A program made the translations under genes and the position numbers. A stretch of 64,000 bases of DNA from Thermoanaerobacterales bacterium. GTDB taxonomy: Bacteria; Bacillota; Thermosediminibacteria; Thermosediminibacterales; Tepidanaerobacteraceae. Shown piece by piece: positions 1,554 through 17,483 of the stretch. The notes beneath the pieces were generated by a model. It had not been told where the DNA came from, ran no database searches, and was given only the letters and a program-made list of their open reading frames with translations. The DNA lies in the NCBI GenBank assembly GCA_012840135.1, contig DUMA01000018.1, positions 119,150 through 183,149 of the forward strand, written 5' to 3'. Numbering within the stretch: the stretch's first letter is position 1; each line of letters opens with the position of its first letter.

Positions 1554-2109
1554 GGAGATAAATATCTAAAGCAAGTTGCATTGATATTAATATTTTGGAA
1601 GAGTTGTTTTCTATAGTATAAAATCAAAACCAAGCCCGACTCGGCCGCAGTGTGCCTGTTATAAAAGCATTGATATTGGGGTTTATAATACTTGCCCGCA
1701 TGGTTGCTAGTATTGTTGAGTCTTTTTTAAATATCTTGCCGGTTACTCTTGAACGAGTATTAGAAAACAGGCGTGGTTTTCAAGAGGTGTAGCCCTTTCT
1801 GTTCCATGCTGCGGAATATAGAAAATTTAGAAGACCACTAAAATCAATTGATACCGGTCAACCAAAGTAATATAATAAATATAGGAGAATGAAACATGAA
1901 CGACTGGCACAGCGACTTTTACGCCGCGATAAAACAACTGTTCAAAGACGAAGACCTAAAAATAATACAAGAAGAGTATCTCTCAAAAGGCCCCCTGCGC
2001 ATAGACGTAATCATCATAAAAAACCTGGACAGCCATCAGATAAAAAAGCAGATCGGAAAGATATTCAAAAAATACAACAACATAGAATACAAATCCCCCA
2101 CAGACTACA
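1554..2109 (+). repeat. Decayed left copy of the DUF1848-3'/spacer/Rpn-like-5' segment (partner 18114-18810)
   Basis: Near-identical to 18114-18810 by direct reading. It carries a TGG->TAG change and a ~135-bp internal deletion near 1717. Confidence 0.85.
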
Positions 2110-2168
2110 AGTTGTTACAGATTACGAATCCGGTGGGTACGCCTGGCATCATTAAAAACATGCAATAG
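1896..2168 (+). pseudogene. Truncated PD-(D/E)XK Rpn-like gene (first ~71 codons of the 18597-19631 paralog)
   Basis: MNDWHSDFYAAIKQLFKDEDLKIIQEEYLSK.PLRIDVIIIKNL..EYKSPTDY is shared with the 344-aa paralog. Homology stops at 2109, after which the ORF runs into unrelated sequence. Confidence 0.75.
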
Positions 2169-2285
2169 TTTTATTAAAGTTACGGATACATCCTAATTTT
2201 TCAGCTTATGACATTATGTTGAGTTCATTTTAAAATAAAGATTTTAGGATTTAATAAATTGCAGCAGGAAAATAGAATTTTGTAG

Positions 2286-2299
2286 CGAACATATATTCT
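2286..2299. promoter_or_regulatory. LexA (Cheo/DinR) box-like site CGAACATATATTCT
   Basis: Matches CGAAC-N4-GTTC(G/C) except for G->A in the right half. It lies 46 nt upstream of the HD gene start, and an identical 14-mer occurs at 4725-4738 upstream of the paralogous HD remnant. Confidence 0.5.
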
Positions 2300-2344
2300 A
2301 GAGTAATTTATATATTTAGAAAAAGGAAAAGGCTGGAATATCTA

Positions 2345-3634: not shown

Positions 3635-4158
3635 AAAGTATACTGAATGATTATTGCAGCATTATTGAATTGCTGCATATTGCAGGAGAAATAAAAGGAC
3701 GCAAAAAGTTACAAAAAATGGTATATATATTAAAAAGTTTAGGAGCAAATTTTACTGAAGACTTTTATTTTCATTATTATGGTCCTTATTCCGATACATT
3801 AACAATTAAACTTGAAGAGCTCAAATCTATGAATATAATTGAAGAAATAAAAGATGAGAGCGGGGCATTTCCACAGTATACGTACAGACTAAAAGCGGAA
3901 AAAGATATAAAAGATGGCCTTGAAAGATATAGAGATTTAATCGGTATACTTAATAGCCAAAATGCAAGATTTTTAGAGTTGTTAGCAACGGTAATATACT
4001 TCCAGCAAGAAGGATATCAACGGGAAGAAATATATGAAAAAGTAAAAATAGTGAAATCAGATAAAAATTATACTGATGACGAAATAGCTTTTTCTTTTGA
4101 TTTTTTAAAAGAAATTTGCGCCGACAGCAGTAACAACGGAGTGGAGGGTTTAGCTTGA
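3631..4158 (+). CDS. YwgA-like / Panacea (DUF4065)-like small protein, translationally coupled to the HD gene
   Basis: ATGA start/stop overlap with the HD gene. GRKKLQKMVYILKSLG...FHYYGPYS resembles YwgA, which sits next to the HD protein YwfO in Bacillus subtilis, and the SocA/Panacea fold. Confidence 0.6.
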   Translation: MKSILNDYCSIIELLHIAGEIKGRKKLQKMVYILKSLGANFTEDFYFHYYGPYSDTLTIKLEELKSMNIIEEIKDESGAFPQYTYRLKAEKDIKDGLERYRDLIGILNSQNARFLELLATVIYFQQEGYQREEIYEKVKIVKSDKNYTDDEIAFSFDFLKEICADSSNNGVEGLA

Positions 4159-4216
4159 AAAATAACTTTTCATTACTATTTGTGTCGCCAGCGGTAGCGG
4201 CGGAATGGAGGCTATA

Positions 4217-4654
4217 ATGAAGATTTCTAAAAGATTGCTTGATGAGCTCGTCGATGCATATGAGGATAATGATCCTATGCACCAATATTTTTTGAATATC
4301 AAGACGGGGGAAGTTGAATTTTTGACAGATTATGAGCCTGACGAAGAGCTATCCGATAGAATAGAAGAAGGTTTCGGCGAAATCTACTTCAGGGTTCCCC
4401 GAATATCGTCATCTGAGGGTTATGATGTAATGGAAGAATTTGCAGAAACAGTTGCTTCATCAAAGATAAGGCACAGGCTTTATGAGGCATTAAACAGGTC
4501 CAAAAAAGTATTCAGAAGGTTCAAAGATGTTCTGGATGACTATCCAGAAGAACGTGACCGCTATTATAAGTTCCTCCGAAAATACTGCGAAGAACAGATA
4601 ATAGAATGGCTGAAAGAGGAAGAGATAGATATGGAAATAACAATAGATGATTGA
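4217..4654 (+). CDS. Acidic hypothetical protein, possibly UPF0158-like
   Basis: ORF 4205-4654; the ATG at 4217 lies 5-6 nt after GGAGG. ..KTGEVEFL...VFRRFKDVLDDYPEERDRYYKF..EWL recalls UPF0158. Assigned from memory only. Confidence 0.45.
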   Translation: MKISKRLLDELVDAYEDNDPMHQYFLNIKTGEVEFLTDYEPDEELSDRIEEGFGEIYFRVPRISSSEGYDVMEEFAETVASSKIRHRLYEALNRSKKVFRRFKDVLDDYPEERDRYYKFLRKYCEEQIIEWLKEEEIDMEITIDD

Positions 4655-4724
4655 TTAATAGACGTTTGGTGTAAAAAGAATTTTGAACTTGCATATTTTC
4701 TGGCAGGAAATTTCAATTTTATGG

Positions 4725-4738
4725 CGAACATATATTCT
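4725..4738. promoter_or_regulatory. LexA box-like site CGAACATATATTCT (second copy)
   Basis: Same 14-mer and similar flanks (AATTTT.T.GCGAACATATATTCT) as 2286-2299. It lies 27 nt upstream of the HD remnant. Confidence 0.5.
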
Positions 4739-4764
4739 CATAGGCATTAAGAGGGGGGAGGTAT

Positions 4765-4932
4765 TTGGAGGATAAAATTTGGGAAATTAGGGATCCCATT
4801 TATGGCTTTATTGAGATAAATGAGTGGGAAAGAGAGATAATAAACCATCCTGTGTTTCAAAGATTAAAAAGGATAAGCCAATTGGCTTTAACGGATATGG
4901 TATATCCCGGTGCTGTTCATACAAGGGAGTAA
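4765..4932 (+). pseudogene. HD-phosphohydrolase remnant (N-terminal 55 codons only)
   Basis: LEDKIWEIRDPIYGFIEINEWEREIINHPVFQRLKRISQLALTDMVYPGAVHTRE* parallels residues ~19-66 of the intact HD protein. It then stops just before the next gene start, implying a ~1.1-kb internal deletion. Confidence 0.7.
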
Positions 4933-4939
4933 GGTTATT

Positions 4940-5065
4940 ATGGAAAATAAAGAATTTATAAGATACGCTTCCATTATACAATTAATTAAAGAAACACAAA
5001 AACACGCTTACAGGTTGGGGAGAACAGCCCTAGTCAACACACTTTATGAATCGCTCAAATTTTGA
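4940..5065 (+). pseudogene. 5' part of a second YwgA/Panacea-like gene, interrupted by the integrative element
   Basis: MENKEFIRYASIIQLIKETQKHAYRLGRTALVNTLY is host-derived up to TAT (5045-5047). The frame then reads into element DNA (ESLKF*). The 3' part is at 14114-14560. Confidence 0.7.
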
Positions 5066-5098
5066 ATCACTACCGTTCCTCCTGCTCCTCAACATTCG

Positions 5099-5614
5099 TT
5101 AACCAGCCTTTCTGAATACTGTGGATGTGAGGACGTGGAGGAGTTCCTTCGTGAACCGACGTGCCTCAGCGTAGTCCTTGAAGTAGACGTATACGCTCGT
5201 CCCACCTTCGTTGGAGCAGAGTTCGTCAATTTTTATGGCATTCTTCGCAACGTCCTCCAAGTACTGAAGCCCTGCGTCTGTCAGAGGAAAGTCAGCGGTG
5301 CCTTCCACATCGTAGTGAGAGCTCTCCTTTTGTACAAGGAGGTGGGGTCGGTAGAGGATGACCTTCGGAATGCCAAGCATCGTGCAGTAGACTTTGTAAC
5401 GAGCTGTCACTCTCTGGAACCGCTTGTATTCTTCCTCCAACTCCTCCCACTCGTCATCTGTAAGCTCCCGCTCGGGGAAGTTTATCGCTAGCTCGGAGTG
5501 GTCAATCTCCAGCCACCCATCCAGCAGAGCCTGTCCTAGACGCTCGTCCAACTCACCTTTGAGGACGGCAAGGGCAATCTCCTGACGCTTCTCAGGACTC
5601 CAGTTAACAAACAT
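5099..5614 (-). CDS. Hypothetical protein (element cargo)
   Basis: 171-aa ORF with the codon usage of the element. No recognisable motif. Confidence 0.55.
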   Translation of the reverse strand: MFVNWSPEKRQEIALAVLKGELDERLGQALLDGWLEIDHSELAINFPERELTDDEWEELEEEYKRFQRVTARYKVYCTMLGIPKVILYRPHLLVQKESSHYDVEGTADFPLTDAGLQYLEDVAKNAIKIDELCSNEGGTSVYVYFKDYAEARRFTKELLHVLTSTVFRKAG

Positions 5615-5715
5615 GTCTGAACACTCCTTTCATGGGGATTCTTAAACTGATAGTTTCTGTAATCGTCTCCGGTTTACATTCTCCTCACCTCCTCAACGGG
5701 GTGGAGTAGAACCGT

Positions 5716-5964
5716 TAGGTTTTTAGCTTTTAGGTTTTGAAGCTAAACCTCGGCAAATACTTCTAAATAGTAAGGTTTGTTAGCTTTTAGCTTTTGAAGC
5801 TTTTGTTATTCCCCCGTTATATAATAAATATCATTCTTCCATACTATATCTCTCCTCTCTTTGTATATATTTTCTTTCTAGAAGCTAAAAAAGCTAAAAA
5901 GCTAACTAACACTTGAATTGCAAGAGTTTGCAGTGTTAGCTTTCATTAGCTTTTTAGCTTTCGG
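5716..5964. repeat. Iteron-like field of TTAGCTTT(T)/AAAAGCTAA repeats around an AT-rich spacer (candidate replication origin)
   Basis: About 10 copies in both orientations: 5723-5731, 5780-5795 and 5796-5804; the inverse copies at 5883-5910; and 5936-5961. An AT-rich block lies at 5820-5880. The field is immediately downstream of, and overlaps the stop of, the primase-helicase gene. Confidence 0.55.
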
Positions 5965-8326
5965 ATTTTGGAAGTATCTCGTACAAGTTTCGATTGCCAA
6001 GCGAAACTAGCTTCAAGCCAGCAATCTTCTCAACGTCTGTTCTATGCTTGGACAAGAACCAACCAAGTCTCTTCCCGTTCTCAAACGGATACTCTTTCCC
6101 GTTCAGCTCTACCCATGCACGCATGCAAATGTCTTCTGCGGAGAGCCTATGCCCAACTCCTTTCTCCTGTCTGTAGTAGTCTGCGATGTCTCGCAGCGTT
6201 GACAATGCATTGTCAGCTTGCTCTGCTTCGGCATAGAACGTGCGCGGTAGCTTCCGAATGATACTCTCTGTGACCTTCAGCATCTCTCCACTCTTGTCAA
6301 GAGCTTCTGCCATTATGCGGAGTGCGCGTTCCAATCCGGAAAGTCTCAACTGTGACCTCTCTCCAGCCTTCCAACGCTTGTCTGCAATCTGGAGAAACCA
6401 GCACGCAGCAGACAGAATGTCTGTCAGAAGCTCTTTCCTACGGCGTGACCAGTTGTAGAACCAGTCTGGGTCGTACCGTCCCTCTAATGCCTTGAAGTAG
6501 AGCCGGATAGACCTCTGCAGTACGTCACTCTCCTTAACCGGAACAGCGATACCTGTAATCGCTACGCACGTCTCTGGATGGAATCGGCTAACACTTGCCG
6601 TAGTGTAGAGTGTCCTCATTTCAATAACTCCACCGGTTACAATGCGGGCAAGACTCACCTCTACGGCCTTTCGTAGCTCCGGAGGGAGAGAGTCCACGTT
6701 GTCTAGTATCAGTAGCCCCGGAGAGTTAACGAGCATCGCTTCGAAATCTCTCTTGTCGGACGGCTGACCCTTTAACCACTTGTCGCTGTAGTCTCCGGTA
6801 AAGGTAAATATCCTCAGTCGGTAGAAGTCCGTCTTACCGGAACCTCTTTCACCAATGGCTAGCTCGAGTGGTAGCTGGAGCCCTCTCCAGTTTCTAAAGA
6901 TTGGTGTCAGGTAGCAGAGAAGTTCAAGAAGTGTTCTCTGCTCCTCGTCCGTCAGTACTGGATGAGTATCAAGGCTCAACTGATTGACAACCTCTCTCCA
7001 CAACCGTCTAGGTCTCATTCCGACGGCGTCTAAATCGATTTCGCACTCCTCAGTTATGAACCCCCGTTTGAACAAGACACTATCAGTCCCGTTCGGTCTT
7101 ACCTCTACTCCGAGAGGAGTCACTTTGTAGAACTCCGAGTCGCTCTTCGCTACGTAGACCACATTTTCGCGAGCGAAGAAGAGGTTGTGTGGGGTGACAA
7201 GCTCCACGCCTTGACGGAATTCATCAGCAACCCTCTTTAGCAGCTCCTTATCGGATGTTCCTATCTCGTAAACTCTCTTCAGGTACTGTGCAAGTGACTT
7301 CTCCGGGAACTCTGCGGAATCGACCTTCCACTCGGCGTCGTACAGTGAATACTCCTCATTGTCAAAGAAGTAGTATTCTGGGAGCTCCGGATGCTTGTAG
7401 CGCTTGCCACGATGGTCTAAATCCGCAACTGTCGCTTTAGCGGCAGCAAGAATGTCAGAGCGACTTTTTTTACGGTCAAGGAGCAACTGTAGCCACGAGC
7501 GCAGGTTGGGAATCGTTGGAAAAAGAGCTGCATCAGCGAGCTCCCAAAATTCGTCTGCGGAGTGTTCGAGCAGAAAATCATCCAACCCAACTTTCTTGTC
7601 TGGTCTGTCAGATGGAAGAACAACCTGATAAACCTCAGCACCGTGCCGATGCAGCCATAGAGCCAGTTCGAATGCGGCTCTCTGCACATTCTCTCTCGAA
7701 GAGAGCTTTGCCATCGGGTCATTGTCGAAAACAATATAGACCTTACGACCACTCCAACGAAACTCTAGCAGCTCTGGAGCTACGTGCTCTTCTACCCTTC
7801 GAATGTTCTCCGGTTTGATGCTGACCAGTACCTCTTTGTCGAGCTGTTTAACGCTTGTTGGCAAGAGTCTGTACTGCTGTCGCTTCCAGTTGTCTACTCC
7901 TCCGAGACCGATAGTAGGGATTCCCTCTTGCACTGATTTAGCAGCTTTCTTCTCGCCCTCGGTTATGACAATCGGTTCCAAGGTATTCGCTACGGACCAC
8001 ACCTCAGGTAAAACGTAGAGGTGCGTTCCTGCGTACTTCGGTTGTACGTAACGGACAGTGTCTCCATCGGGTGTCGTAATCGGAGGAAACAACCGGACTC
8101 TGACAAATGGTATCGGTTCGGCGTCTTCCTCCAGACCTTTGTCAGTTAACGGCTTACCATGTCTGTCAAAATACGGTATGAGGTAGCCTACCGCATTCTT
8201 CCAGCCCGTAAGCTTCTCAACCTCTTCTATTGAGAGCGAGCGTATTCCCATACGAGCAATCGTCTCATCGGAGAGTCCGCTATCCCTCAGGTTCTGGAGA
8301 TGCGCTGGTGCTATGCGACTTAACAT
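5954..8326 (-). CDS. Replication protein: Toprim/DUF3854-like primase domain + P-loop NTPase
   Basis: The ..ITEGEKKAAKSVQEGIPTIGLGGVDNW...VYIVFDND pattern is Toprim-like. Walker A is AIGERGSGKTDF, and a Walker B-like LLILDNVD follows. Confidence 0.7.
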   Translation of the reverse strand: MLSRIAPAHLQNLRDSGLSDETIARMGIRSLSIEEVEKLTGWKNAVGYLIPYFDRHGKPLTDKGLEEDAEPIPFVRVRLFPPITTPDGDTVRYVQPKYAGTHLYVLPEVWSVANTLEPIVITEGEKKAAKSVQEGIPTIGLGGVDNWKRQQYRLLPTSVKQLDKEVLVSIKPENIRRVEEHVAPELLEFRWSGRKVYIVFDNDPMAKLSSRENVQRAAFELALWLHRHGAEVYQVVLPSDRPDKKVGLDDFLLEHSADEFWELADAALFPTIPNLRSWLQLLLDRKKSRSDILAAAKATVADLDHRGKRYKHPELPEYYFFDNEEYSLYDAEWKVDSAEFPEKSLAQYLKRVYEIGTSDKELLKRVADEFRQGVELVTPHNLFFARENVVYVAKSDSEFYKVTPLGVEVRPNGTDSVLFKRGFITEECEIDLDAVGMRPRRLWREVVNQLSLDTHPVLTDEEQRTLLELLCYLTPIFRNWRGLQLPLELAIGERGSGKTDFYRLRIFTFTGDYSDKWLKGQPSDKRDFEAMLVNSPGLLILDNVDSLPPELRKAVEVSLARIVTGGVIEMRTLYTTASVSRFHPETCVAITGIAVPVKESDVLQRSIRLYFKALEGRYDPDWFYNWSRRRKELLTDILSAACWFLQIADKRWKAGERSQLRLSGLERALRIMAEALDKSGEMLKVTESIIRKLPRTFYAEAEQADNALSTLRDIADYYRQEKGVGHRLSAEDICMRAWVELNGKEYPFENGKRLGWFLSKHRTDVEKIAGLKLVSLGNRNLYEILPKSES

Positions 8327-8354
8327 CTCTCATTCGCCTCCCTCTCTTCGAGTC

Positions 8355-8606
8355 TTACTCTTTGTATATCCTGTCAGCCATCTCATGATACTGTTTCACC
8401 CAATCCTCGAACTCTGCGAGGTAGAGCACCGGAGCGTTTACTCCGTTGACCTTCCGGAGGGACATCTTCAGGATTCCCTCATCGACCAGCTTCTCGATTT
8501 CCTCCCTCGCTCCGGGAAAGAAATCCATTCGTGATACATTGAGGACTGGATACGTCCTGAACAGCTCTAACAGCCTGTCACGCTTGTTCAATCCACCTCT
8601 TGGCAT
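8355..8606 (-). CDS. Small hypothetical protein (83 aa)
   Basis: Internal ATG (8606) of ORF 8355-8753, preceded by GAAAGGGG. The upstream part of the listed ORF is AT-rich junk. Confidence 0.5.
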   Translation of the reverse strand: MPRGGLNKRDRLLELFRTYPVLNVSRMDFFPGAREEIEKLVDEGILKMSLRKVNGVNAPVLYLAEFEDWVKQYHEMADRIYKE

Positions 8607-8849
8607 GCTAACAACCCCTTTCAGTATTAAGTGTGTTATTGCTATTATTATATTTGAAACCAAAGGAACTTTTAAGGGAGGAACTTTTTTTGTTGAGCGA
8701 TTGGAAAGCGAAGAAAAACAAGCTACCTCTATAAAGTTGCGACCAAGTATCATAAAATATAATCAAGACAGAGTCAGGAGTATAGCTCCGGAGCCTCAAA
8801 GAGGCTCGCTCGTCGATAAAAGTTCCTAGGTGCAGGCTTAACATAAAGT

Positions 8850-9206
8850 GCATCTTCTTTCTGATACGCACTCTCATTCGCTTCTCTCACGAACAGGAGG
8901 GAAGGTTTGGCATTTGACAGTCCTCGAACCTCCTGCACAGTACTTCCTCCTCTTTGGTGGATCTCTCAGAGGAACGACAGGAGGTAGAGAGACGTCTGGC
9001 AAAACCTCCTAGGAATCGGAGTCAGTAGACTCGACCTCCCTAGGGGTAGTAAGGGTTTCTGTGAGGTAGAGAGAAGTGGCCTAGACGGCAAACAGGACCT
9101 CACAAGAGAGTCCTCGATTACAAGAGAGACCTCTGTGGTGTAGTACTCATTCTACACCTTTCGGTTTTCGGTAGGGAGTACTGGCAGTAGCCAGTGCTCT
9201 CTTTTT
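8850..9206 (+). ncRNA. Candidate structured non-coding RNA inside the element (boundaries approximate)
   Basis: No ORF of 60 codons or more. Stacked helices include CAGGAGG 8894-8900/CCTCCTG 8929-8935, CCTCCT 8946-8951/AGGAGG 8979-8984, GTGAGGT 9061-9067/ACCTCAC 9096-9102 and GGTGTAG 9136-9142/CTACACC 9152-9158. The region ends in a plus-strand-specific terminator, while the flanking genes are on the minus strand. Confidence 0.3.
9177..9206 (+). terminator. Intrinsic terminator (plus strand only)
   Basis: GAGTACTGGC-AGTA-GCCAGTGCTC followed by TCTTTTT. There is no U-run on the opposite strand. Confidence 0.6.
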
Positions 9207-9312
9207 ATGCTCCAAGAAAAAGTTCCATTCTTTCGTCGAAGTATAAAATAGTTGATGAAAAAAGTGCCTAGGTGCAAATCGGTTTATAATTGGGTATGAA
9301 ACCAAGAAAATC

Positions 9313-9341
9313 GGTGGGAACCACGTGTCCCACCTGTTTTT
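9313..9341. terminator. Bidirectional terminator-like hairpin
   Basis: GGTGGGA (9313-9319)/TCCCACC (9328-9334) with TGTTTTT on the plus strand and GATTTTCTT on the minus strand. It sits just downstream of the minus-strand gene 9362-9646. Confidence 0.55.
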
Positions 9342-9361
9342 ATGAGAGAAAAGGAGTGTGA

Positions 9362-9646
9362 CTACTTCTTGCTAGTGGCTCTACTTGCCTGAGCAAGCTT
9401 CTTCCGAAGTGAAAGGAACTTCCCCACAGAGACAGTGAGAGAGGCATCGTACCTCATCCGCTTCGTGGCGAACTCGAAGACATCTACGCCATCCTCTCTG
9501 TTCGTGAAGGTAAACTCTGTCCCACGGTCAGTCTGACGTGTCGTGTACGGAAAGTTGAAGTAGGCAAGCACTGTGGCGACATTCAGGTCACCAGTTACAA
9601 ATCCAGTTCTCTCCTTGATAGGAGCTCCCTGTTTCTTCTCACTCAT
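9362..9646 (-). CDS. Hypothetical protein (94 aa)
   Basis: Clean ORF with element-type codon usage, followed by a terminator hairpin. Confidence 0.55.
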   Translation of the reverse strand: MSEKKQGAPIKERTGFVTGDLNVATVLAYFNFPYTTRQTDRGTEFTFTNREDGVDVFEFATKRMRYDASLTVSVGKFLSLRKKLAQASRATSKK

Positions 9647-9671
9647 TTGAACAACCTCCTCTTGAAAAAGT

Positions 9672-9926
9672 TTAACCTTTCAGAGCTTCTTGACGGTACT
9701 TCTGAAAGGCTCTGTTGGCTTCCTCACAGGCTTCTCGGACCGCTTCTTCCTCTTCGTCATAGACCGGTTCGTCTAAATCTGCGGTGAAGAGACCAGTGCC
9801 GAGCAAGTACTCGGCTTCATGCATGGGGACATCGATGATATCTCCGGCTTTGCAGAACACCTTCGTCTTCTTGTTTTTGTAGTCCACCAAAGAGAAGGAC
9901 CTACCTCTGACGAGTTTCAGTTTCAT
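9672..9926 (-). CDS. Hypothetical protein (84 aa)
   Basis: ATG at 9926 preceded by AGGAGGTGAG. The longer listed ORF (to 10052) overlaps the upstream gene. Confidence 0.55.
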   Translation of the reverse strand: MKLKLVRGRSFSLVDYKNKKTKVFCKAGDIIDVPMHEAEYLLGTGLFTADLDEPVYDEEEEAVREACEEANRAFQKYRQEALKG

Positions 9927-10005
9927 AGGCTCACCTCCTGAATCACGCTTGGTCTTACGAGTAGACCACGTACACGGAGCAGTTAGACACCTCTCCTCAT
10001 CTCGC

Positions 10006-10854
10006 TTACCTCCCTCCGTACTGCTTTTCGATTTTCTCAATGGTCTCCTCAATCTTGTTAATCGGGGTCACTTCCGCAGGAGCGGTTATCTCTTTGTACT
10101 TGATGCTACGCCAGATTTCCAGCCCCTTCTGTGTCTGTGAGAGAGCAGTGTTCAACCGCTTCATCAAAGCCTCACGCACCTTCTGGTATGGCAGTCTGTC
10201 GATGGTAGCGTAGAGCTTTGCGATGTCGTGAATGTCGATAGGACGCTCGGACTTCTGCATCGTGGAAGAGAGCATCGCATTCGTCAACGCAGATGCAGTA
10301 GCCTGCTGATGCTTCAACGAAGCGGTAATACCAAGTGCGTCCATGTTCTTCTGACGGTTCTCTGTTCGCTGCTTTCGCTCGTTTTCAGCCTCTTGCTCTT
10401 TACGCTGTTTGAGAGCTTCCCATTCAGGCGGTTGCATACCTTTGATGAGCTCTGCAACTTCCTCCCTCTCAATCTCCTCACGTACCTTCTGTGGGTTGGT
10501 GAGGGCTTTCAGTAAATCACGTCTGAGACTCTGGAATTGTTCATTTGTCAACGCCATATCGGAATCATCCTCCTTTCCTGATTTGCGAAGGCTCTCATCA
10601 ATTGCCTTCTGTTGCTTGACAACAACTTCAATAAGCTTCTCGACCTGCTCCGGTGGGAGTTCTCCAATGGCTCTCCGAGCCTTCTCAATAAGCGGTTTTA
10701 GTACTAGTGGAGGATAGAAGAACCTTTTTGAAGTTGTTCCCACAGGAGTCGGCTTCTCCTCAACGATGTTCGCATCTTTGGTGATGTGGTACAGTGCGTT
10801 GTCGATGCTGAAAAGAGTGTACTCCAGCTTCGACTTTGGAGTGTTGTTGCTCAC
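10006..10854 (-). CDS. Hypothetical coiled-coil protein
   Basis: GTG at 10854 lies 7 nt after GGAGG. The central region is rich in E/K/R/Q heptad-like sequence. Confidence 0.55.
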   Translation of the reverse strand: MSNNTPKSKLEYTLFSIDNALYHITKDANIVEEKPTPVGTTSKRFFYPPLVLKPLIEKARRAIGELPPEQVEKLIEVVVKQQKAIDESLRKSGKEDDSDMALTNEQFQSLRRDLLKALTNPQKVREEIEREEVAELIKGMQPPEWEALKQRKEQEAENERKQRTENRQKNMDALGITASLKHQQATASALTNAMLSSTMQKSERPIDIHDIAKLYATIDRLPYQKVREALMKRLNTALSQTQKGLEIWRSIKYKEITAPAEVTPINKIEETIEKIEKQYGGR

Positions 10855-10858
10855 GTTA

Positions 10859-11254
10859 TCACCTCCCCACTGACTCGTAGATTTTGTCAACATCCTTCGT
10901 GCTCGTGAACAACTCCACGGTTGCTACTAGCGACTGCATCTCCAACAGTCTGTCAAGCTCCTTCTCGTCTTTTGGTAAGTCCTCTACGTAAAGGAGTCCG
11001 ATGCCTCTTCCTCGTGGGTCTTTCTTAATCGGCAGATTGTCAAGTGCAATCGCAGTGGTAGAGAGCTCCAGCATCAGGTCCATTGCTTGACAGAACTTCT
11101 CCCACCAGTCTTCACGGATGACGATGGGAGTACCAGGCTTCCTCAACCTCAATGCTGGCAACCGATGTGTGGCGATGAGGTACTTGATAAACTCTCTACT
11201 GTAACCCCAGTACTCTTCAATTTCCTTAAGTGTCAGCCATTGTTTCTGCTTCAT
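10859..11254 (-). CDS. Excisionase/MerR-like HTH DNA-binding protein (candidate recombination directionality factor or regulator)
   Basis: N-terminal WLTLKEIEEYWGYSREFIKYLIATHRLPALRLRKPGTPIVIREDW fits the excisionase-family HTH_17 pattern. Strong RBS GAGAGGAGGGAG. Confidence 0.6.
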   Translation of the reverse strand: MKQKQWLTLKEIEEYWGYSREFIKYLIATHRLPALRLRKPGTPIVIREDWWEKFCQAMDLMLELSTTAIALDNLPIKKDPRGRGIGLLYVEDLPKDEKELDRLLEMQSLVATVELFTSTKDVDKIYESVGR

Positions 11255-11272
11255 CGTACTCCCTCCTCTCGT

Positions 11273-11286
11273 CGAACGTATGTTCT
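11273..11286. promoter_or_regulatory. LexA box-like site CGAACGTATGTTCT (reads AGAACATACGTTCG on the minus strand)
   Basis: Both half-sites are intact (GAAC-N4-GTTC). It lies 19 nt upstream of the excisionase-like start codon and abuts a TAATAG -10-like hexamer on the minus strand. Confidence 0.5.
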
Positions 11287-11325
11287 ATTATGTAAAAATT
11301 CTATAATAGGTCACCGGAACTTTAT

Positions 11326-11380
11326 AGAGGGCCTTGTAAAAATTTTCTACGAATTTTGACAAAATTTTACAAGACCCTCT
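11326..11380. promoter_or_regulatory. 20-bp inverted repeat (operator or leader hairpin) in the divergent control region of the element
   Basis: AGAGGGCCTTGTAAAAATTTT (11326-11346) against AAAATTTTACAAGACCCTCT (11361-11380). Further TTGTAAA-type half-sites occur at ~11290 and ~11389, and TTGACA at 11356-11361. Confidence 0.55.
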
Positions 11381-11451
11381 TTATTTTTCTTGTAAAGTTC
11401 ATTATAATATTATCATAAGCAGTTAGAAAATTTTAGTAGAGGAGGAAGATT

Positions 11452-11811
11452 TTGATGGCACGTAACCAGAGTGTTCAACAGCAAAATAACGAGAGGGAGG
11501 TCCAGACAGTGAAAGTCGAGTTCGTCGTTTCCACCGACAAGAAGGAAGTTGACCCGAAGCTGGAGGAACTTCGGAAGCGGAGAGATACCTACAAAGGGAA
11601 TCTCGCGTATGCAATTGCACAACAAGACAAGTACAGCAAGGATTACACCGAGGCTCTCAACCGGGGTGCTGACCAGCTTACACTTGACCGGTTGGAGTTG
11701 AAACTTCGGGAGGCTGACTTGCGAATCACCTTCTACAAAGAGAAGCTGGCGAAGGTCGAAGAGGAAATCATTCGGTACAAGCTTGAAAGGAAGAAAGAGG
11801 CGGTTGCGTAA
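11452..11811 (+). CDS. Hypothetical coiled-coil protein (119 aa)
   Basis: ATG follows GGAGGAAG. It is the first gene of the plus-strand operon that ends with the recombinase. Confidence 0.55.
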   Translation: MMARNQSVQQQNNEREVQTVKVEFVVSTDKKEVDPKLEELRKRRDTYKGNLAYAIAQQDKYSKDYTEALNRGADQLTLDRLELKLREADLRITFYKEKLAKVEEEIIRYKLERKKEAVA

Positions 11812-12414
11812 ATGAAACGAGCAACTGCCTCTCTCACTTTTCGGAGGAGGATAGGAGTACTGTTCGTTCTTATCCTCCTTTCCTTTTTGGTACTGGTACT
11901 CCGACTGGCGTACATCATTTTCTGGTGGTACCCTTACCACGAGTACAAGCGAAATCCACCACCTCCCGCAGACAGTGGGATAGTCTATACAGTCAAGAAC
12001 GGAGACTACTTGTTCGCCATCAGTAAGAGGTTTCAGGTTCCACTGAAGAGCGTTATCCGACTGAACGACATTAAGAATCCAGACCTCATTCATCCAGGCG
12101 ACAAGATACGGATTCCAGAGCCGCTTCCAGCTTATCCGAATGAGGAGATAATCGTTGCTCTGGAGAGTCCAGCGAACTTTTGGAAGGGAGTGAAGACAGT
12201 GTGGGGAAAAACACGTTGTCGCTTCGCAATCTTCGGAGTGAAGAAAGACGGAAAGGAAATCCTCTGCGGCAATTGCACCTACGGGACGAGAGAGGAAGCA
12301 GAGAAAAAGCTTCCTCTCTTTCGTCTCATTTTTGAGGTGAGAGGCTACCAGTTGGAGATACGACCGTTCGACATTCGTGAAAACTTGTCCACATTCAAGC
12401 ATATAATGCAGTAA
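11812..12414 (+). CDS. Membrane-anchored LysM-domain protein
   Basis: N-terminal TM segment IGVLFVLILLSFLVLVL. LysM motif YTVKNGDYLFAISKRFQVPLKSVIRLNDIKNPDLIHPGDKIRIP. Confidence 0.75.
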   Translation: MKRATASLTFRRRIGVLFVLILLSFLVLVLRLAYIIFWWYPYHEYKRNPPPPADSGIVYTVKNGDYLFAISKRFQVPLKSVIRLNDIKNPDLIHPGDKIRIPEPLPAYPNEEIIVALESPANFWKGVKTVWGKTRCRFAIFGVKKDGKEILCGNCTYGTREEAEKKLPLFRLIFEVRGYQLEIRPFDIRENLSTFKHIMQ

Positions 12415-12437
12415 GAAAATGTTTAGGAGGGAGAAAA

Positions 12438-14108
12438 ATGAAACGAGCAGCGATTTACGCCAGGGTCTCCACAGAAGACCAGACAGACAATACCTCATTC
12501 GACACGCAAGTAACGGACTGCCGAAGAGAGGCAGAACGTCGAGGATACATCACAACAGAAACCGATGTCTACTTGGAGGACGTGTCAGGAGCTTACGGCA
12601 TTGACCGTAGACCAGTCCTCCGTACCGTGTGGGAGAAGTACCAGACAGGATTCTACGATGCCATCATCGTCTGGCACACTGACCGATTGAGCAGGAACCT
12701 AACCGTGTTCACTGCTCTCGTTAACAGTGCACGAGAGAAACGTCAGTGTGGAACAAAAGGAGACGGATTCATCTTCGCCAGAGTTCCCACAGAGGATACT
12801 GCCGAAGGACGACTCCTCCTCAACCAACTGGCAAGCTTCGCAGAGTACGAGAGGGAGAGAATCCGTCTCCGGACTCTCACTGGTAAACACAGTCGAGCGA
12901 AGGAAGGAGCATTCTTCGGTGGAGGAGAGCTTCTCGGTTATCGGTGGAACAGAGAGAAGCGGAGATGGGAAGTCGTTGAGGAAGAAGCAAACATCGTCCG
13001 TCTCATCTACCAGATGTACGTCTACGGTATGGACGGTGAGGGACCTATGGGTACGATGAGGATTGCAGAGAGACTCCAGCAACTCGGGATACCCACACCC
13101 AACCAGATGAAGGGAACTCGTCTTGGTAGACCGAGCAAGAACGGTAAGGTTGGTGAGGTCTGGTCAGAGACCACCGTCCTACGCATCCTCACGAACACCG
13201 CATACGTCGGAGAGCACTACTTCTGGAGAGAGTCGAAACCCATTACACCGGAGAGCATCAAAGAGGAGTGGATACCAGTCGAGTTTCCAGCAATCGTTGA
13301 CCGTGACCTGTTCGAGAAGGCTCAGGAGAAGCGGAAGAACGCTCGTGGAGGGTTCAACCGCAAGAAGCCAAAGCCGCTCCTTGCAGGACGTATCCGTTGT
13401 GGTCTCTGCGGTCACGCGTACGGTGTCTGCGTTAGTGGGAAGAAGGATGCGTACAAGTGCAACGGACGACTGAAGAAGTACCACCTTGACGGCTCTCCTC
13501 GCTGTACCTCACCAATCCTCTTACAGGAACCGTTCGAGCAAGCGGTGAAGGAACTCCTTCTCAATGCCTTGTCGAGTCCTGAATCAGCACGGAAGGCGGT
13601 GGAGGAGTACCTTTCCAGTCTGGAGAGGAAGAAGGTCGAGCTTGAGACCATCCTCGGTCCAGCAAACGAGCAGCTCTCTACGGTACAGGAGAAGATGCGG
13701 AGGTTGGCAAAGGTCTACCTCTCCGGAGTGCTTGATGACGAAGAGTACCACAGAGAGCAAGAAGCGTTGAGGGAGCAGGAGCAAGCCATCCGTCAGAGAT
13801 TTGAACGTTACGGTACCGAGTTCGATACTCTTACCAATGTTCAACGACACATCGAAGACGTAAAAGTCGTTCTGGAGTCCGGACTGTTCGATGTCCGCTA
13901 CTCCGGTGATGAGCACGTGGTGGAGGAAGTTGCTTTCGTCAGAGTCAAGGACGAGAAACACTTGACGGTAGGATTCCCACAGAGAGCAATAACATGGGAA
14001 GAGCTCCTCGACCTCTTTCAAGTGACGTGTTGGGTCTACGAAGACCGTATCGAGGTGAGAGGACTCTTCCCACTCAAAAATCTACCAATTCATAAAGCAT
14101 TAAATTAA
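12438..14108 (+). CDS. Large serine recombinase (resolvase catalytic domain + recombinase domain + zinc ribbon + coiled coil)
   Basis: MKRAAIYARVSTEDQ (catalytic Ser motif)...DRLSRN...; zinc ribbon CGLCGHAYG..YKCNG; C-terminal coiled coil; 556 aa. Confidence 0.95.
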   Translation: MKRAAIYARVSTEDQTDNTSFDTQVTDCRREAERRGYITTETDVYLEDVSGAYGIDRRPVLRTVWEKYQTGFYDAIIVWHTDRLSRNLTVFTALVNSAREKRQCGTKGDGFIFARVPTEDTAEGRLLLNQLASFAEYERERIRLRTLTGKHSRAKEGAFFGGGELLGYRWNREKRRWEVVEEEANIVRLIYQMYVYGMDGEGPMGTMRIAERLQQLGIPTPNQMKGTRLGRPSKNGKVGEVWSETTVLRILTNTAYVGEHYFWRESKPITPESIKEEWIPVEFPAIVDRDLFEKAQEKRKNARGGFNRKKPKPLLAGRIRCGLCGHAYGVCVSGKKDAYKCNGRLKKYHLDGSPRCTSPILLQEPFEQAVKELLLNALSSPESARKAVEEYLSSLERKKVELETILGPANEQLSTVQEKMRRLAKVYLSGVLDDEEYHREQEALREQEQAIRQRFERYGTEFDTLTNVQRHIEDVKVVLESGLFDVRYSGDEHVVEEVAFVRVKDEKHLTVGFPQRAITWEELLDLFQVTCWVYEDRIEVRGLFPLKNLPIHKALN

Positions 14109-14113
14109 TTTAT

Positions 14114-14560
14114 TTGCTTCAAGAAAAATTTGGTGTGCCTGTAGGATATGATTTTAGGTTATATACGTATGGTCCTTTTGCAAAAGGAATATTGGATGAT
14201 CTTGATTATTTATCCTTTTTAGAAGCTGCAAAGATTAATACAAGTGATGGGAAATATGAAATATTACCTGGTGACGATTCTGTCATAGATTATATTTATG
14301 GAAAGGCTAAACCATTTATTGATGAAAATAAAGATATCATAAGCCGTATAGTTAAAGAATTTGGTCATTTACCCGCAAAATCCCTTGAATTAATAACCAC
14401 GATACATTATATTATAAACGATTATAAGGAAAACAATATTGATTTCACAAAAAAGGATATATCCACCTTAATACATGAAATTAAACCATACTTCAGCGAG
14501 GAAGAAATTTTAGACAAAATTAATGAACTTGAACATGAAAAGTTTATTGAAATTTTATAG
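14114..14560 (+). pseudogene. 3' part of the interrupted YwgA/Panacea-like gene
   Basis: LLQEKFGVPVGYDFRLYTYGPFAKGILDDLDYL.. continues the frame of 4940-5047. It parallels ..FHYYGPYSDTLTIKLEEL of the intact paralog. Confidence 0.7.
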
Positions 14561-14808
14561 GACTATTTTACAAAAGGACATTGCCAAGAGGACGGGAAAC
14601 GGCCTTTTCATTTTCTCATGAAAACCTTTGGTTCTTTTTAGGCGCTGTATAGAGGGGGGAGCCCAAAACGGCAGCAGTAAATAATACTTCTGGTGCACAA
14701 TATATTTTAAAAGCCTCTAAAGAACTTGATGAATTATATAATGAACTCATAAAAGAATTTGAATCGGATAGCGAATGCGGTAATTTTAAAAGTTATAATA
14801 ACCCTGGA

Positions 14809-17460
14809 ATGGTTACAAATAAAATGCAAATGGCCGGAAATATATACTGGTGGTTTTCTACACATTTTTGTAAAGCAAAGGATGCAATTGATAAATATGA
14901 AAAAGAAAATAAAAATGATTTAACTTCGATATTAAAGCAAAAAAATATTACTGTTGTAGATATAGGTGCAGGTCCCGGCACGTTTTGTTTAGCATTATTG
15001 GATACATTGTATCAAACTCAACGCACTGAAAATAAAGATATAGATTTTATTTTGGTTGAGCCAAATGAATTATTTCATCCTATTGCCAGAAAACTGATTA
15101 CATCATTTTCGGAAAAAATCTCTATAAAGTCAAATATAGAAATAATAAAAGGCTTTTTTCCTGAAAAAACCTGTCTGGAGCAAGTGTTAAATGTATTAAA
15201 AAATAAAAATGTAGATTTCATGATATTTTCTTTGTGTAATCTATTAAACTGGCTAAATGTTATTCAGATGATTCGATCTTGTCGAGAATTCATTGATGAA
15301 ATAATAAATAAAATCAATCCTTATTATTCTGTGATATTATCGGTAGAAACAAATAATATAAAGTTATATTTTAAATTAATGTTTTTCTACTACATTATAA
15401 ATAAATTAACTTCTGATAATTATTGTTTAATGCCTCAACGATTTAATGCAATTGGTTGGAATTTTTCTGGTTCGCGCTATTATATATCAGAGTTAGACGA
15501 TCATAGCTTTGATATTTTTTATTATTTTGCTTATACTGGTATCGATTCGTTAATTTCCAAAATATCTAGTCCGGATACATTAAAAGTAGCCTTCTACAAA
15601 GCCAGGATGGCTTTGCGCAGAGAATTTCCATGTGACGATGTCGAAATAAAACTTTTTGAAGAAAATCTTGATGACAATATCGATTTTTGTTCAAAAGAAA
15701 TAAAAAAAGGATATCAATTCTGCAATAAACCTGTAGCATATCGTGCTCCAAAAAATGATAAGGATGATCGACCTAAAATAATGGATAACATTTATGACGC
15801 AATAGTAGGGGCATCTTTTCTGGATATAATAGGTCGAAAGATAGATAATAATTTTTTAGATATATGCCATGGGAATCGATTGAATAGAAAAGTTAAAACA
15901 GAATTTACATATGAATATTTTTGGTATGCATGGTATTTTAAATTTTATAGATCGGCTTTAAAATATGCAAAAAATAAAAGATTTACTCATTTTATGAAGC
16001 TTGATATAAAATCCTTTTATACTAATATTTCTCAGAATTTACTTTTTAAGAAAATATATGAAAGACTTCCAAATAAAAATAAGAAACTGATATGTTTAGT
16101 CAATTCTCTTATCAGAAGAGATTTCCCTGAATTATCTAAAGGGAAGGGGTTACCTCAAGGGCCGCTTACTTCTGGATTTTTAGCTAATCTGTATCTGGAT
16201 GATTTTGATAGATATATGGTTAAATTATCGGATAATGGTTATAGAAGATATGTTGATGATATGATGATTTTTACAAAGGAAGAACAATATTTAAAGAATA
16301 TAAAGAATCAGGCAGATAATTTTTTAAAGAAAAAGCTAGGATTAGAACTTAAAGAAGACAAGACTCAGTGCGGAAAAATCGAAGAATTGGAAAGTGTTGC
16401 AAACGATAAAGATATGGATTCGTTTGACAAGCATTTAAAAAAGATTCTTAGAAGTTTATATTGTCTTGATAGAAAAACTTATGATAAGTATGTTGAAGAT
16501 CCGGGAAAATTTCTTGAACTATATTCTCATTGCTTAAAGGAATTAAACATTATAATTAATGTTAACTGGTTGCACCGAAAATTATATTATGAGCATAATA
16601 GATTAAAAAGTATTTATCATAGGGTTATAGGCAGGTATTTTTCTATAAAATTCCCTATACCTGCTGAAGATAATTCTGATATAGAAAGATGGAAGCAAGA
16701 TTTTATTTCAAAAAACCCTAAAATAATGAATGAAATAGAAAAATTACGAAAGCAGCTGGTTACTGAGCTAGAATGTTTGTATGAGCAATATGGACTGTTG
16801 GATAAAACTCAGTGTGATGAAAACACAAAGAAAAAAATAAGAGCAAAGTACCGCTTTTATACATTTCGAGCCGGAATATTGCATAACCCGGATGTAATAA
16901 ATATAATAAAATGTTTGATAGACCATCCATGGCTATATAATATAAATGTTTTAAGAGCCTACCATGAATTAGTAAGTGACATGATAATAAAATTAAAGCA
17001 GACAAAATCGAATTATCTTAAATATGCATTGATATGGGCTTTGGGAGAGATAAAGGATTCTTCTGCTGTTAATATATTACAAGAAATTTTGTTTGATAAC
17101 AATTCATCACATATATTAAAGTTGATGTGTTCTCAATCTCTGTTAAAAATTAATTGTCGTTATAATATAGATTATAATCGTCTATTAAAAGAAATAGATA
17201 TCCAATATAAAAGTGGCCAATCGAAAATCCTTAAAAATTTAATACTTTTGCTTCCTGATTCTATAATTGAAGATGTAATAAATAAATATGATTTTAATAT
17301 TTTCAATGAATATGATCAACGTTTATTAAATGCTGCAATTTCTTGGGTCAAAGAAAATAAAGGAGATTTCATGAAACAATTGGATATCTTACCTGAATAT
17401 TTTAATCCAGATGATTATCCGGAAATAGAAGCTGAGCCTGAAGTAATTCCCTTTTCATGA
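14809..17460 (+). CDS. Reverse transcriptase with an N-terminal class-I SAM-methyltransferase-like domain and a C-terminal HEAT/alpha-repeat domain (defence-type UG/Abi-like RT)
   Basis: The RT motifs are KLDIKSFYTNI, GLPQGPLTSGFLANLYLDDFD (L448-) and YRRYVDDMMIF (Y481VDD). The N-terminal Rossmann motif is VVDIGAGPGT (D51-G57), followed by ILVEPN. The C-terminal HEAT-like stretch is ALIWALGEIKDSSAVNILQEIL. The frame is open from 14653 without ATG, GTG or TTG. Confidence 0.9.
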   Translation: MVTNKMQMAGNIYWWFSTHFCKAKDAIDKYEKENKNDLTSILKQKNITVVDIGAGPGTFCLALLDTLYQTQRTENKDIDFILVEPNELFHPIARKLITSFSEKISIKSNIEIIKGFFPEKTCLEQVLNVLKNKNVDFMIFSLCNLLNWLNVIQMIRSCREFIDEIINKINPYYSVILSVETNNIKLYFKLMFFYYIINKLTSDNYCLMPQRFNAIGWNFSGSRYYISELDDHSFDIFYYFAYTGIDSLISKISSPDTLKVAFYKARMALRREFPCDDVEIKLFEENLDDNIDFCSKEIKKGYQFCNKPVAYRAPKNDKDDRPKIMDNIYDAIVGASFLDIIGRKIDNNFLDICHGNRLNRKVKTEFTYEYFWYAWYFKFYRSALKYAKNKRFTHFMKLDIKSFYTNISQNLLFKKIYERLPNKNKKLICLVNSLIRRDFPELSKGKGLPQGPLTSGFLANLYLDDFDRYMVKLSDNGYRRYVDDMMIFTKEEQYLKNIKNQADNFLKKKLGLELKEDKTQCGKIEELESVANDKDMDSFDKHLKKILRSLYCLDRKTYDKYVEDPGKFLELYSHCLKELNIIINVNWLHRKLYYEHNRLKSIYHRVIGRYFSIKFPIPAEDNSDIERWKQDFISKNPKIMNEIEKLRKQLVTELECLYEQYGLLDKTQCDENTKKKIRAKYRFYTFRAGILHNPDVINIIKCLIDHPWLYNINVLRAYHELVSDMIIKLKQTKSNYLKYALIWALGEIKDSSAVNILQEILFDNNSSHILKLMCSQSLLKINCRYNIDYNRLLKEIDIQYKSGQSKILKNLILLLPDSIIEDVINKYDFNIFNEYDQRLLNAAISWVKENKGDFMKQLDILPEYFNPDDYPEIEAEPEVIPFS

Positions 17461-17483
17461 TTTTATAAAAAGGTTGATTAAAA

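Follow-up and report, generated by a model that had tools for sequence, protein, structure and literature searches.

The DNA examined here is a 64,000-nucleotide stretch (the window) of a thermophilic Thermoanaerobacterales bacterium, positions 119,150 to 183,149 of contig DUMA01000018.1 (assembly GCA_012840135.1), recovered from a biogas-fermenter metagenome. It contains an element of 9,066 bp (5038-14103, one copy of the core counted) that splits a YwgA/Panacea-like gene, hereafter ywgA, and carries a gene for a large serine recombinase at its right end. A first-pass annotation, made from the letters of the window, gave the element the same length and placed it 10 bp further to the right. 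The features that define the two ends are as follows.

4940..5037, plus strand: ywgA, 5' part (through ..ALV + AA), from alignment to homologues and to the empty site
5036..5037: AA crossover dinucleotide in attL, shared by the element end and the empty site
5038..5065: P' arm of attP (CACA-CTTTATGAA..), which mirrors the P arm
5038..5102, plus strand: continuation of the recombinase open reading frame, in frame only in the excised circle; 21 added codons (THFMNRSNFESLPFLLLLNIR, then a stop) give a 576-aa protein
12438..14108, plus strand: large serine recombinase, 556 amino acids (aa) as integrated, with Pfam, PHROG and PDB relatives
14074..14101: P arm of attP (..TTCATAAAG-CATT), located within the recombinase gene at its 3' end
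14102..14103: AA crossover dinucleotide in attR, at the shared element end ..GCATT-AA
14104..14560, plus strand: ywgA, 3' part, from alignment to homologues and to the empty site

The two halves of the host open reading frame (ORF) join in frame to encode 184 aa. The product matches SocA_Panacea in Pfam (26.2 bits, cut-off 25.7) and, in PADLOC, the C-terminal region of DarG at 2e-12, and it is collinear in alignment with 13 uninterrupted homologues. The insertion had been made to depend on the existence of uninterrupted relatives, and these were found: P0001, also of 184 aa, is 94% identical (173/184) to the join used here and 92% identical to the earlier one, and a 184-aa protein of Thermoanaerobacterium thermosaccharolyticum is 71% identical. 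P0001 is encoded on L004, a 955-bp contig from another metagenome that represents the empty site and is collinear with the host sequence through the junction (95% DNA identity over 856 nt), which bears out the earlier view that the empty site can be reconstructed. These comparisons show a precise, recombinase-mediated insertion into ywgA. Against the empty-site allele P0001 the split gene has a pN/pS of 0.2 (corrected join) and is free of decay.

The crossover had been assigned to the pentanucleotide TTTAT, which occurs at both ends (5043-5047 and 14109-14113). Instead, it lies at AA, 7 bp upstream of TTTAT, according to the comparative junctions, the symmetry of attP and a motif conserved in the host protein, and strand exchange most probably occurs there. 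The empty site reads ..CCCTAGTC-AA-ATTAATTTATTTGC.. (GTC-AA-ATTAATTTAT around the core), attL of the window reads ..CCCTAGTC-AA-CACACTTTATGAATCGC.. and attR reads ..TTCATAAAGCATT-AA-ATTAATTTATTTGC.. Three independent attL junctions agree up to AA: that of the window, that of a related element in an ABC ATPase gene (L014) and that of a copy in Thermoclostridium stercorarium (L017/L018). They have sequence in common only from ..TC-AA-CACACTTTATGAA onward, and their host flanks are unrelated. On the other side, six independent attR junctions (window, L015, L016, L017/L018, L022 and L024) share ..TTCATAAAGCATT-AA and diverge directly after it. Across these nine junctions and the one empty site, the overlap between attP and attB is AA alone. 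A 2-bp crossover that is the sole determinant of orientation is established for this enzyme family (A118 integrase, PMC3556126).

The host protein gives the same answer. All close homologues have ALVKLIYLLQ; the join at AA recovers this motif, and the join at TTTAT yields ALVNTLYLLQ. The joined protein of about 184 aa proposed earlier was right in frame and length and wrong in three residues (ALVNTLY for the conserved ALVKLIY). In the region of the pentanucleotide, the empty site reads AA-ATTAA-TTTAT and attL reads AA-CACAC-TTTAT. Because CACAC is replaced by ATTAA in the empty site and is shared with L014 and L017, it is element DNA, and TTTAT is no more than a resemblance of the B' and P' half-sites. 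Short direct repeats at the two ends of an island may thus stem from half-site similarity rather than mark the crossover, and for serine recombinases comparative junctions together with attP symmetry reveal the true 2-bp core.

The reconstructed attP is TTCATAAAG-CATT-AA-CACA-CTTTATGAA, in which 4-bp spacers separate the central AA from the two arms of a perfect 9-bp inverted repeat. Symmetry about that dinucleotide holds at 42 of 62 positions. The predicted junction of the circle is ..AAAGCATT-AA-CACACTTTATG.. (longer form ..CTACCAATTCATAAAGCATTAACACACTTTATGAATCGCTC..) and the predicted restored attB is ..ACAGCCCTAGTCAAATTAATTTATTTGCTTC.. A sister lineage of recombinases, about 55% identical and found in Thermincola ferriacetica (L010) and on metagenome contig L013, has the same att design around a TT core (AATACTG-TT-CAGTATT). 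The protein sequences carry a further trace of the AA core. L555 is followed by N, K, R, T or I in the 90%-identity cluster of the window recombinase and likewise in P0039, which is truncated and 99% identical. These residues all have ANN codons, as expected if the codon consists of the second A of the core followed by host bases.

The recombinase begins MKRAAIYARVSTEDQ, and an N-terminal YARVSTEDQ motif can be read from its sequence. It matches the Pfam families Resolvase (1e-24, residues 4-158), Recombinase (6e-18) and Zn_ribbon_recom (7.5e-10) and the PHROG integrase family (4e-86), and its relatives in the PDB are SPbeta SprA/YokA and the TP901-1 integrase. The hallmarks of large serine recombinases are all present, namely a resolvase domain with the nucleophile motif Y-x-R-x-S-T, C-terminal recombinase and zinc-ribbon domains, and att sites with a central dinucleotide, imperfect inverted repeats and little identity between attP and attB, from which the position of cleavage is deduced. 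The earlier description of a 556-aa serine recombinase ending 5 nt inside the right junction holds for the enzyme and fails for the gene end: the last two bases of the final codon and the stop (14104-14108) are host DNA.

Since attP lies within the 3' end of the recombinase gene, integration swaps the last 21 codons for host-supplied ones, and the integrated and circular forms encode different C-termini. The enzyme predicted from the circle has 576 aa and ends ..KAL-THFMNRSNFESLPFLLLLNIR; integrated recombinases end one to about 65 host-derived residues later. In one T. stercorarium strain (L018, positions 3829-5691) the integrated recombinase reaches 620 aa by way of 65 host codons, and its ORF overlaps the 3' end of a DJ-1/PfpI gene on the opposite strand, which illustrates how widely the C-terminus of integrated copies can vary. 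The TT-core recombinases extend in the frame predicted from the circle and end at the same stop (..FNSLPFLLLLNIR). A comparison of the window with T. stercorarium finds 9 base differences in the 64-nt tail; codon changes are 5 synonymous to 2 non-synonymous in the recombinase frame, against 1/6 and 0/7 in the other two. This bias suggests that the tail is translated and under selection, so that the circular form would matter, with the reservation that the sample is small and the region could also be conserved as DNA.

With attP inside the gene, the full 576-aa enzyme with its conserved hydrophobic tail (..SLPFLLLL[N/H]IR) would be made only from the circle, and integrated copies would produce tail-less or randomly tailed versions. 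The free enzyme could be proficient in integration and the integrated one quiescent or dependent on a directionality factor. That the family represents a new type of hitch-hiking replicon of thermophilic Firmicutes, whose recombinase is built as a sensor of its own state with isoforms differing in direction or activity, is a tentative proposal, possible rather than probable. For comparison, the tyrosine integrases of myxophage Mx8 (intP/intX) and of Sulfolobus SSV1 have attP inside the integrase gene, and integration alters their C-termini. The present case differs in that the enzyme is a serine recombinase and only 21 C-terminal codons are exchanged, with a functional consequence that is hypothetical.

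Recombinases of the same 90%-identity cluster occupy at least seven other junctions, mostly in ABC ATPase genes, which overturns the earlier implication that ywgA is a dedicated site. In ABC-transporter ATPase genes, four independent insertions share a single codon position, just past the Walker A motif (a slash marks the point of insertion).

L014 with L022: GKTTLL/NIIAGFLEP
L015: LL/KMIAGL
L016: LL/RMIAGL
L024: LL/NIIAGFERP

The T. stercorarium copy is located between the DJ-1/PfpI gene and glpP. The ywgA site encodes GRTALV/KLIYLL and shares with the ABC sites the TC-AA core context and parts of both arms; 18 of the 40 central bases match the ABC attB. This is not exceptional, and the idea that ywgA is a close DNA mimic of the ABC attB was rejected. 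No ABC-type target site was found in the 64-kb window. The ywgA insertion looks like either an off-target event of an enzyme that prefers the ABC motif or the work of an enzyme of relaxed specificity as described by Durrant et al. Targets seen for the cluster are ywgA, the DJ-1/PfpI-glpP site and four ABC ATPase genes, counted as genes and not as 50%-identity gene clusters; Durrant et al. (2022) call a recombinase multi-targeting when one 90% cluster is found in more than three clusters of target genes (PMC10083194). DUF4368, which is present in 63% of the multi-targeting clade and is not obligatory there (PMC10083194), gave no Pfam match in the recombinase. If the preference is real, the Walker-A-proximal ABC motif would offer a multi-copy target in almost any bacterium, which fits the presence of the family in different classes. 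A recombinase from a thermophile with defined attP and attB and a preference for a conserved ABC ATPase motif may also be of interest in searches for new integrases.

The element belongs to a small family. Four copies have both junctions mapped.

Window: 9,066 bp, 49.0% G+C
Thermincola ferriacetica (L010): 9,901 bp, 48.9% G+C
Thermoclostridium stercorarium, two strains (L017/L018): 10,126 bp, 48.6% G+C
Metagenome contig L013: 9,607 bp, 49.0% G+C

Hydrogenibacillus schlegelii (L012, with 4.6 kb at 95.5% DNA identity) and several metagenomes yielded partial copies. The copies are syntenic and have in common a 131-aa helix-turn-helix (HTH) protein (HTH131), the proteins o282, o84, o94, o119 and o171, a 650-bp non-coding block, a variable LysM protein and the recombinase, and the core proteins are almost without other relatives. 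The recombinase/att module can be exchanged too: in L013, core genes of the window type (87-97% identity) go together with a TT-core recombinase. Copies are 95-98% identical in different classes of Firmicutes (Clostridia and Bacilli). The family appears to be rare and undescribed. What emerges is a compact group with near-orphan core genes and exchangeable replication modules, spread over Clostridia and Bacilli in spite of having no recognisable transfer genes.

Three of these contigs deserve a remark. The H. schlegelii MA 48 contig (L012, contig_43, 4,874 bp) matches the window only over 8714-13320, with about 128 nt unmatched at each end, a pattern that suggests either several variants in the genome or contamination of the assembly. 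Contig L024 (SRR24392716, 9,939 bp) is essentially the whole element alone and ends near both att sites, as would be expected if the element has several contexts in one sample (different sites, or circle and integrated form); no terminal overlap was found at its ends. Next to the element in L013, positions 2001-4000 form a further segment of 34-41% G+C in a host of 65% G+C, so that this copy may have inserted beside or in another foreign island.

The shift in composition at both ends that drew attention to the element is real. G+C is 31.8% in 2201-5037, 49.0% in the element and 29.2% in 14104-18600, and in sliding windows it rises from about 0.32 to 0.50 across 4800-5200 and falls from 0.52 to 0.34 across 13800-14200, the step at each end that was to be looked for. 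The remaining window has about 41% G+C. The four mapped copies stay at 48.6-49.0% G+C with flanks ranging from 29% to 65% (54-65% for L013, about 41.5% for T. stercorarium); the G+C content is a family constant and not a donor signature. The argument for recent acquisition from a much more G+C-rich donor therefore falls. The step is sharp because the target sits in a low-GC defence island within a genome of about 41% G+C; the odd segment is that island.

The left part of the element carries a replication module.

5714..5962: putative replication origin directly 3' of the primase-helicase gene, with an AT-rich spacer flanked by TTAGCTTT iterons that occur in both orientations
5954..8326, minus strand: 790-aa primase-helicase, a DUF3854/Toprim N-terminal domain with a P-loop NTPase (Pfam, PHROG, motifs)
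8355..8606, minus strand: o83, a small gene upstream of the primase-helicase gene in the variable replication module (gene call)

The primase-helicase matches Pfam DUF3854 at 1e-18 and a PHROG labelled DNA primase; it has Toprim motifs and a Walker A sequence, GERGSGKT, at residues 492-499. Two Brevundimonas phage proteins are 29% identical to it over 86% of its length, its N-terminal third is 36% identical to annotated phage primases, and its N-terminal domain also matches the DUF3854/CyRepA1 proteins of cyanobacterial plasmids. One such plasmid match falls in a gene annotated as a MobF relaxase; the element itself has no relaxase domain. The iteron field described earlier stands: eight exact copies of TTAGCTTT lie in 5723-5961 and four in the other 63.7 kb of the window, and the total of 12 was reached in 0 of 100 shuffles. 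Relatives carry an AAA_25 gene in place of this module and have no such iterons, so the module is exchangeable, with initiator and iterons replaced together. In T. stercorarium, whose replication gene is a different one, the replication module and the core next to it were scanned and showed no comparable array. The alignments with four relatives each stop at 8714, the boundary between core and replication module. The protein o83 had no family match in Pfam, even at lenient thresholds, and is absent from relatives with the AAA_25 module.

The cargo as listed in the first-pass annotation (primase-helicase, iterons, excisionase-like HTH protein, LysM membrane protein, small genes and a non-coding block of about 0.65-0.75 kb) was recovered. 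Searches of the element proteins against Pfam, PHROGs and NCBIfam likewise returned no capsid, terminase, relaxase or type IV secretion gene, as had been claimed, and none of the 12 ORFs encodes a relaxase, coupling protein or type IV secretion component of the kind that marks integrative conjugative or mobilisable elements. With this cargo and these absences, "minimal replicative integrative element" is a fair description. Taken as a whole, an intact small integrative element from an apparently undescribed family of 9.1-10.1 kb, which replicates itself, integrates by its serine recombinase and prefers ABC ATPase sites, is the probable reading of the locus.

Sequence comparison shows that the element entered by serine-recombinase recombination of a palindromic attP with a host site at the non-palindromic AA. 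In the cycle proposed for it, the recombinase would synapse attP with a TC-AA host site, cut at AA with a 2-bp stagger and exchange strands. Excision, perhaps aided by the excisionase-like HTH protein or another small core protein, would yield a circle, which would be replicated from the TTAGCTTT iteron/AT-rich origin by the Toprim/P-loop primase-helicase of the element. Because the family has no recognisable transfer genes yet is 95-98% identical in different classes, spread would require a helper (a phage or conjugative element) or DNA uptake. Insertion would inactivate ywgA, a loss presumably tolerated or compensated because the HD-domain partner gene of ywgA has lost its catalytic body.

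Several observations weigh against the reading of a mobile, self-replicating element with a preferred target. All assemblies of the host organism show the integrated state, and neither of the attP junction strings matched anything in IMG/VR, so that excision and replication are deduced from the genes and sites. An exact look-up of three predicted 576-aa circular-form proteins in the protein collection returned none; the test is a very strict one, so that this negative counts for little. As to target preference, 189 AA-centred 40-mers on the two strands of the window (where the ywgA halves lie apart) match the ABC attB at 18 or more of 40 positions. With a similarity this weak, the term off-target rests on site counts and not on a measured preference. 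The Hydrogenibacillus copies (L012, L020) are on contigs of about 5 kb and could be contaminants. Finally, HTH131 was considered as a recombinase-specific directionality factor and rejected: it is 97-99% identical (97% in L013) where the recombinase is only 55% identical, and thus does not co-vary with it.

The principal alternative is a phage satellite of the PICI, PLE or PICMI type, which would be excised and replicated on induction by a helper and packaged in helper capsids. The locus resembles such elements in its size of 9-10 kb, the integrase at one end, the divergent control region, the AlpA/Xis-like HTH protein and a primase-helicase with an adjacent iteron origin; structural genes are absent, the primase-helicase has phage homologues, and PLE is likewise moved by a large serine recombinase (PMC6002521). 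What it does not have, in PHROGs, Pfam or NCBIfam, is a helper-packaging gene such as a small terminase or a capsid-remodelling (size-redirecting) function, and the sole structural-type PHROG match, a connector at E = 0.009, is not significant. Scanning the 2.9 million contigs of IMG/VR with the recombinase and o94 brought up no relative, and megablast of the whole element against GenBank phages and PLSDB plasmids gave no match. Near-identical copies in Clostridia and Bacilli would also be unusual for transfer limited by phage host range. A satellite is therefore judged unlikely, though it is the most substantial of the competing explanations.

Programmed excision that restores a ywgA defence gene, in the manner of skin, SPbeta or gin, is far less credible. 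The insertion is precise and in frame, excision would rebuild the 184-aa ORF, the split gene is undecayed by its pN/pS, and non-prophage intervening elements with site-specific recombinase genes are known (gin, PMC5595907). Yet the related recombinases in ABC ATPase genes show that ywgA is not dedicated, restoring it would not restore the pair after deletion of the HD partner, and in a published survey the targets of large serine recombinases were not enriched in defence genes or their vicinity (PMC10083194). Least of all can be said for the two remaining explanations. A TTTAT crossover with a recent G+C-rich donor has in its favour the repeat at both junctions and the sharp G+C step, and is refuted by the comparative junctions: CACAC is shared with L014 and L017 of unrelated flanks, the symmetry axis of attP is at AA, the TTTAT join destroys the conserved K-L-I motif and the element keeps its G+C in hosts of 29-65%. 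A chimera of metagenome assembly, or the fixed remnant of a decayed prophage or plasmid, could be suspected from the source of the DNA and from the fact that the excised form was not observed; it is scarcely tenable, since the same junctions are present in ENA and Logan contigs from several project runs and a metagenome-assembled genome at NCBI (TPA) has identical element proteins. Moreover, all family genes are full length against copies in isolate genomes, the AA core and the ANN-codon rule are as real recombination predicts, and phage structural remnants were not found.

The preferred reading, an integrative element with its own replication genes, has its closest analogues in Tn4451-type elements, SCC elements and phage satellites, and in kind it is one of the small replicative elements moved by serine recombinases. 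The clostridial mobilisable transposons Tn4451/Tn4453 (TnpX) and Tn5397 (TndX) and the multi-targeting large serine recombinases (PMC10083194) are alike in small size, several sites, a 2-bp core and a loose flanking motif. The element differs from this group in having no Mob/oriT gene and no detected DUF4368, and in its AA core, its own replication module and an ABC ATPase coding motif as target. Tn4451-type elements have a GA core dinucleotide. SCC (staphylococcal cassette chromosome) elements are likewise chromosomal cassettes that are moved by large serine recombinases, have a replication module of the helicase/primase type and lack transfer machinery. In NCBIfam the recombinase matches CcrB best, but the score of 93.7 bits is far below the cut-off of 900; the targets are ywgA and ABC ATPase genes, not rlmH. 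SCC is defined by a Ccr equivalog and by insertion at the rlmH 3' end, and neither is found. The replication proteins (DUF3854/Toprim, or AAA_25 in relatives) are also unrelated to those of SCC, and the hosts are thermophilic anaerobes.

With PICI, PLE and PICMI the element shares the satellite-type set (integrase, primase/replicase and an origin of its own) and the absence of capsid genes; it differs in having no packaging or capsid-redirecting gene, no known helper, no presence in viral contig collections and several integration sites rather than one attC site. In all, some features of phage satellites are found and others are not; of the multi-targeting class, several sites are seen and DUF4368 is not detected. 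Like skin, SPbeta and gin, it is a large-serine-recombinase element that splits a coding gene which precise excision would rebuild. Unlike them, it has multiple unrelated targets instead of a dedicated one, developmental control is not evident, replication is predicted and the operon partner of the target is lost.

The remaining genes and features of the element are listed below.

5099..5614, minus strand: o171, family-conserved, 30-33% identical to relatives with a strongly conserved C-terminus
8714..9361: family-conserved non-coding block of about 650 bp, 83-90% identical to L012, L013 and L014
9313..9334: terminator-like hairpin that lies just downstream of o94 and can be read on either strand
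9362..9646, minus strand: o94, the most conserved core protein, 80-97% identical to relatives; UniRef cluster label DUF5659
9672..9926, minus strand: o84, core protein conserved in relatives
10006..10854, minus strand: o282, all-helical core protein, 6 clusters in 5.8 billion proteins
10859..11254, minus strand: HTH131, an HTH protein of 131 aa resembling excisionase/AlpA and a candidate for a regulator or a directionality factor
11255..11451: divergent control region; a TTGACA hexamer lies within an operator-like inverted repeat, CTTGTAAAAATTTT..AAAATTTTACAAG
11452..11811, plus strand: o119, core protein and first gene of the recombinase operon, 71-99% identical to relatives
11812..12414, plus strand: 200-aa LysM protein with one hydrophobic, membrane-like N-terminal segment (Pfam LysM 3.4e-14)

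In Pfam, HTH131 matches HTH_17 with 8.5e-5 and 23.2 bits, where the cut-off is 27 bits; among PHROGs it matches number 66, "excisionase and transcriptional regulator", with 2.5e-4. In the control region the inverted repeat, at 11334-11373, brackets a perfect TTGACA, and a tandem AATTTTACAA is also present; the operator-like palindrome suggests that the region switches between the leftward operon and that of the recombinase. The ORFs left unplaced gave only sub-threshold noise with lenient Pfam thresholds, PHROGs, NCBIfam and PADLOC, and o171 had no match in Pfam, PHROG, NCBIfam or PADLOC. For o282, an AlphaFold2 model from seven sequences reached a pLDDT of 64.8, and Foldseek against the PDB returned nothing below E = 2.6. 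The single-sequence model of o94 (pLDDT 47.6) was unusable. This protein had only two hits among 1.84 billion representatives; its only distant relative there is P0187, a protein of 3,294 aa in which five stretches resemble the middle of o94 (29% identity). The coiled-coil character of o119 was judged by eye from the sequence. The LysM protein weakly resembles YneA (sub-threshold) and varies from 76 to 200 aa across relatives.

The target lies in a low-GC (29-32%) defence island that spans about 2200-18600, minus the element, within the genome of about 41% G+C.

2345-4158: HD (dGTPase-like) gene and YwgA-like gene, the first pair
4765..4932, plus strand: what is left of the target's HD-domain partner gene; ~380 internal codons are deleted, so that the N-terminal ~54 run directly into the last codon and stop
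14809-17460: UG25-class defence reverse transcriptase (PADLOC 1e-122)
17484-18425: DUF1848 partner of the UG25 reverse transcriptase
Within the low-GC stretch of about 2200-18600: UPF0158 gene

The element struck the second of the two ywgA genes. In Thermoanaerobacterium (L005) the ywgA homologue is directly downstream of a full HD-domain gene of 436 aa, whose N-terminus is matched by the 55-aa remnant up to ..PGAVHTR, and the empty-site contig L004 keeps the 3' end of the HD gene (the HD C-terminus) immediately upstream of ywgA. The deletion was apparently joined at A(A/G)GG microhomology. The second HD-YwgA pair would thus have been inactivated twice, by the HD deletion and by the insertion. 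Loss of the toxin-like HD partner of a Panacea-type gene may explain why disruption of ywgA was tolerated, or may result from it. There is no evidence to suggest that the element deliberately targets defence genes, and the published survey agrees, in that targets were not enriched in or near such genes (PMC10083194).

Within the non-coding block, two sub-blocks are also conserved in Thermincola, and the block is kept whichever replication module adjoins it. Its indels are not multiples of three. A search of Rfam over 4000-15500, with E up to 0.1, gave no match. A structured RNA was considered and set aside: RNAalifold on five copies gives hairpins with a few compensatory changes and a covariation term of +4.0, which is not supportive, and an RNA is therefore not claimed. 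The block holds two copies of AAAAGT[T/G]CCTAGGTGCA (8818-8834 and 9260-9276) and, at 9173-9202, a 13-bp hairpin whose variants keep pairing only as G-U on the plus strand.

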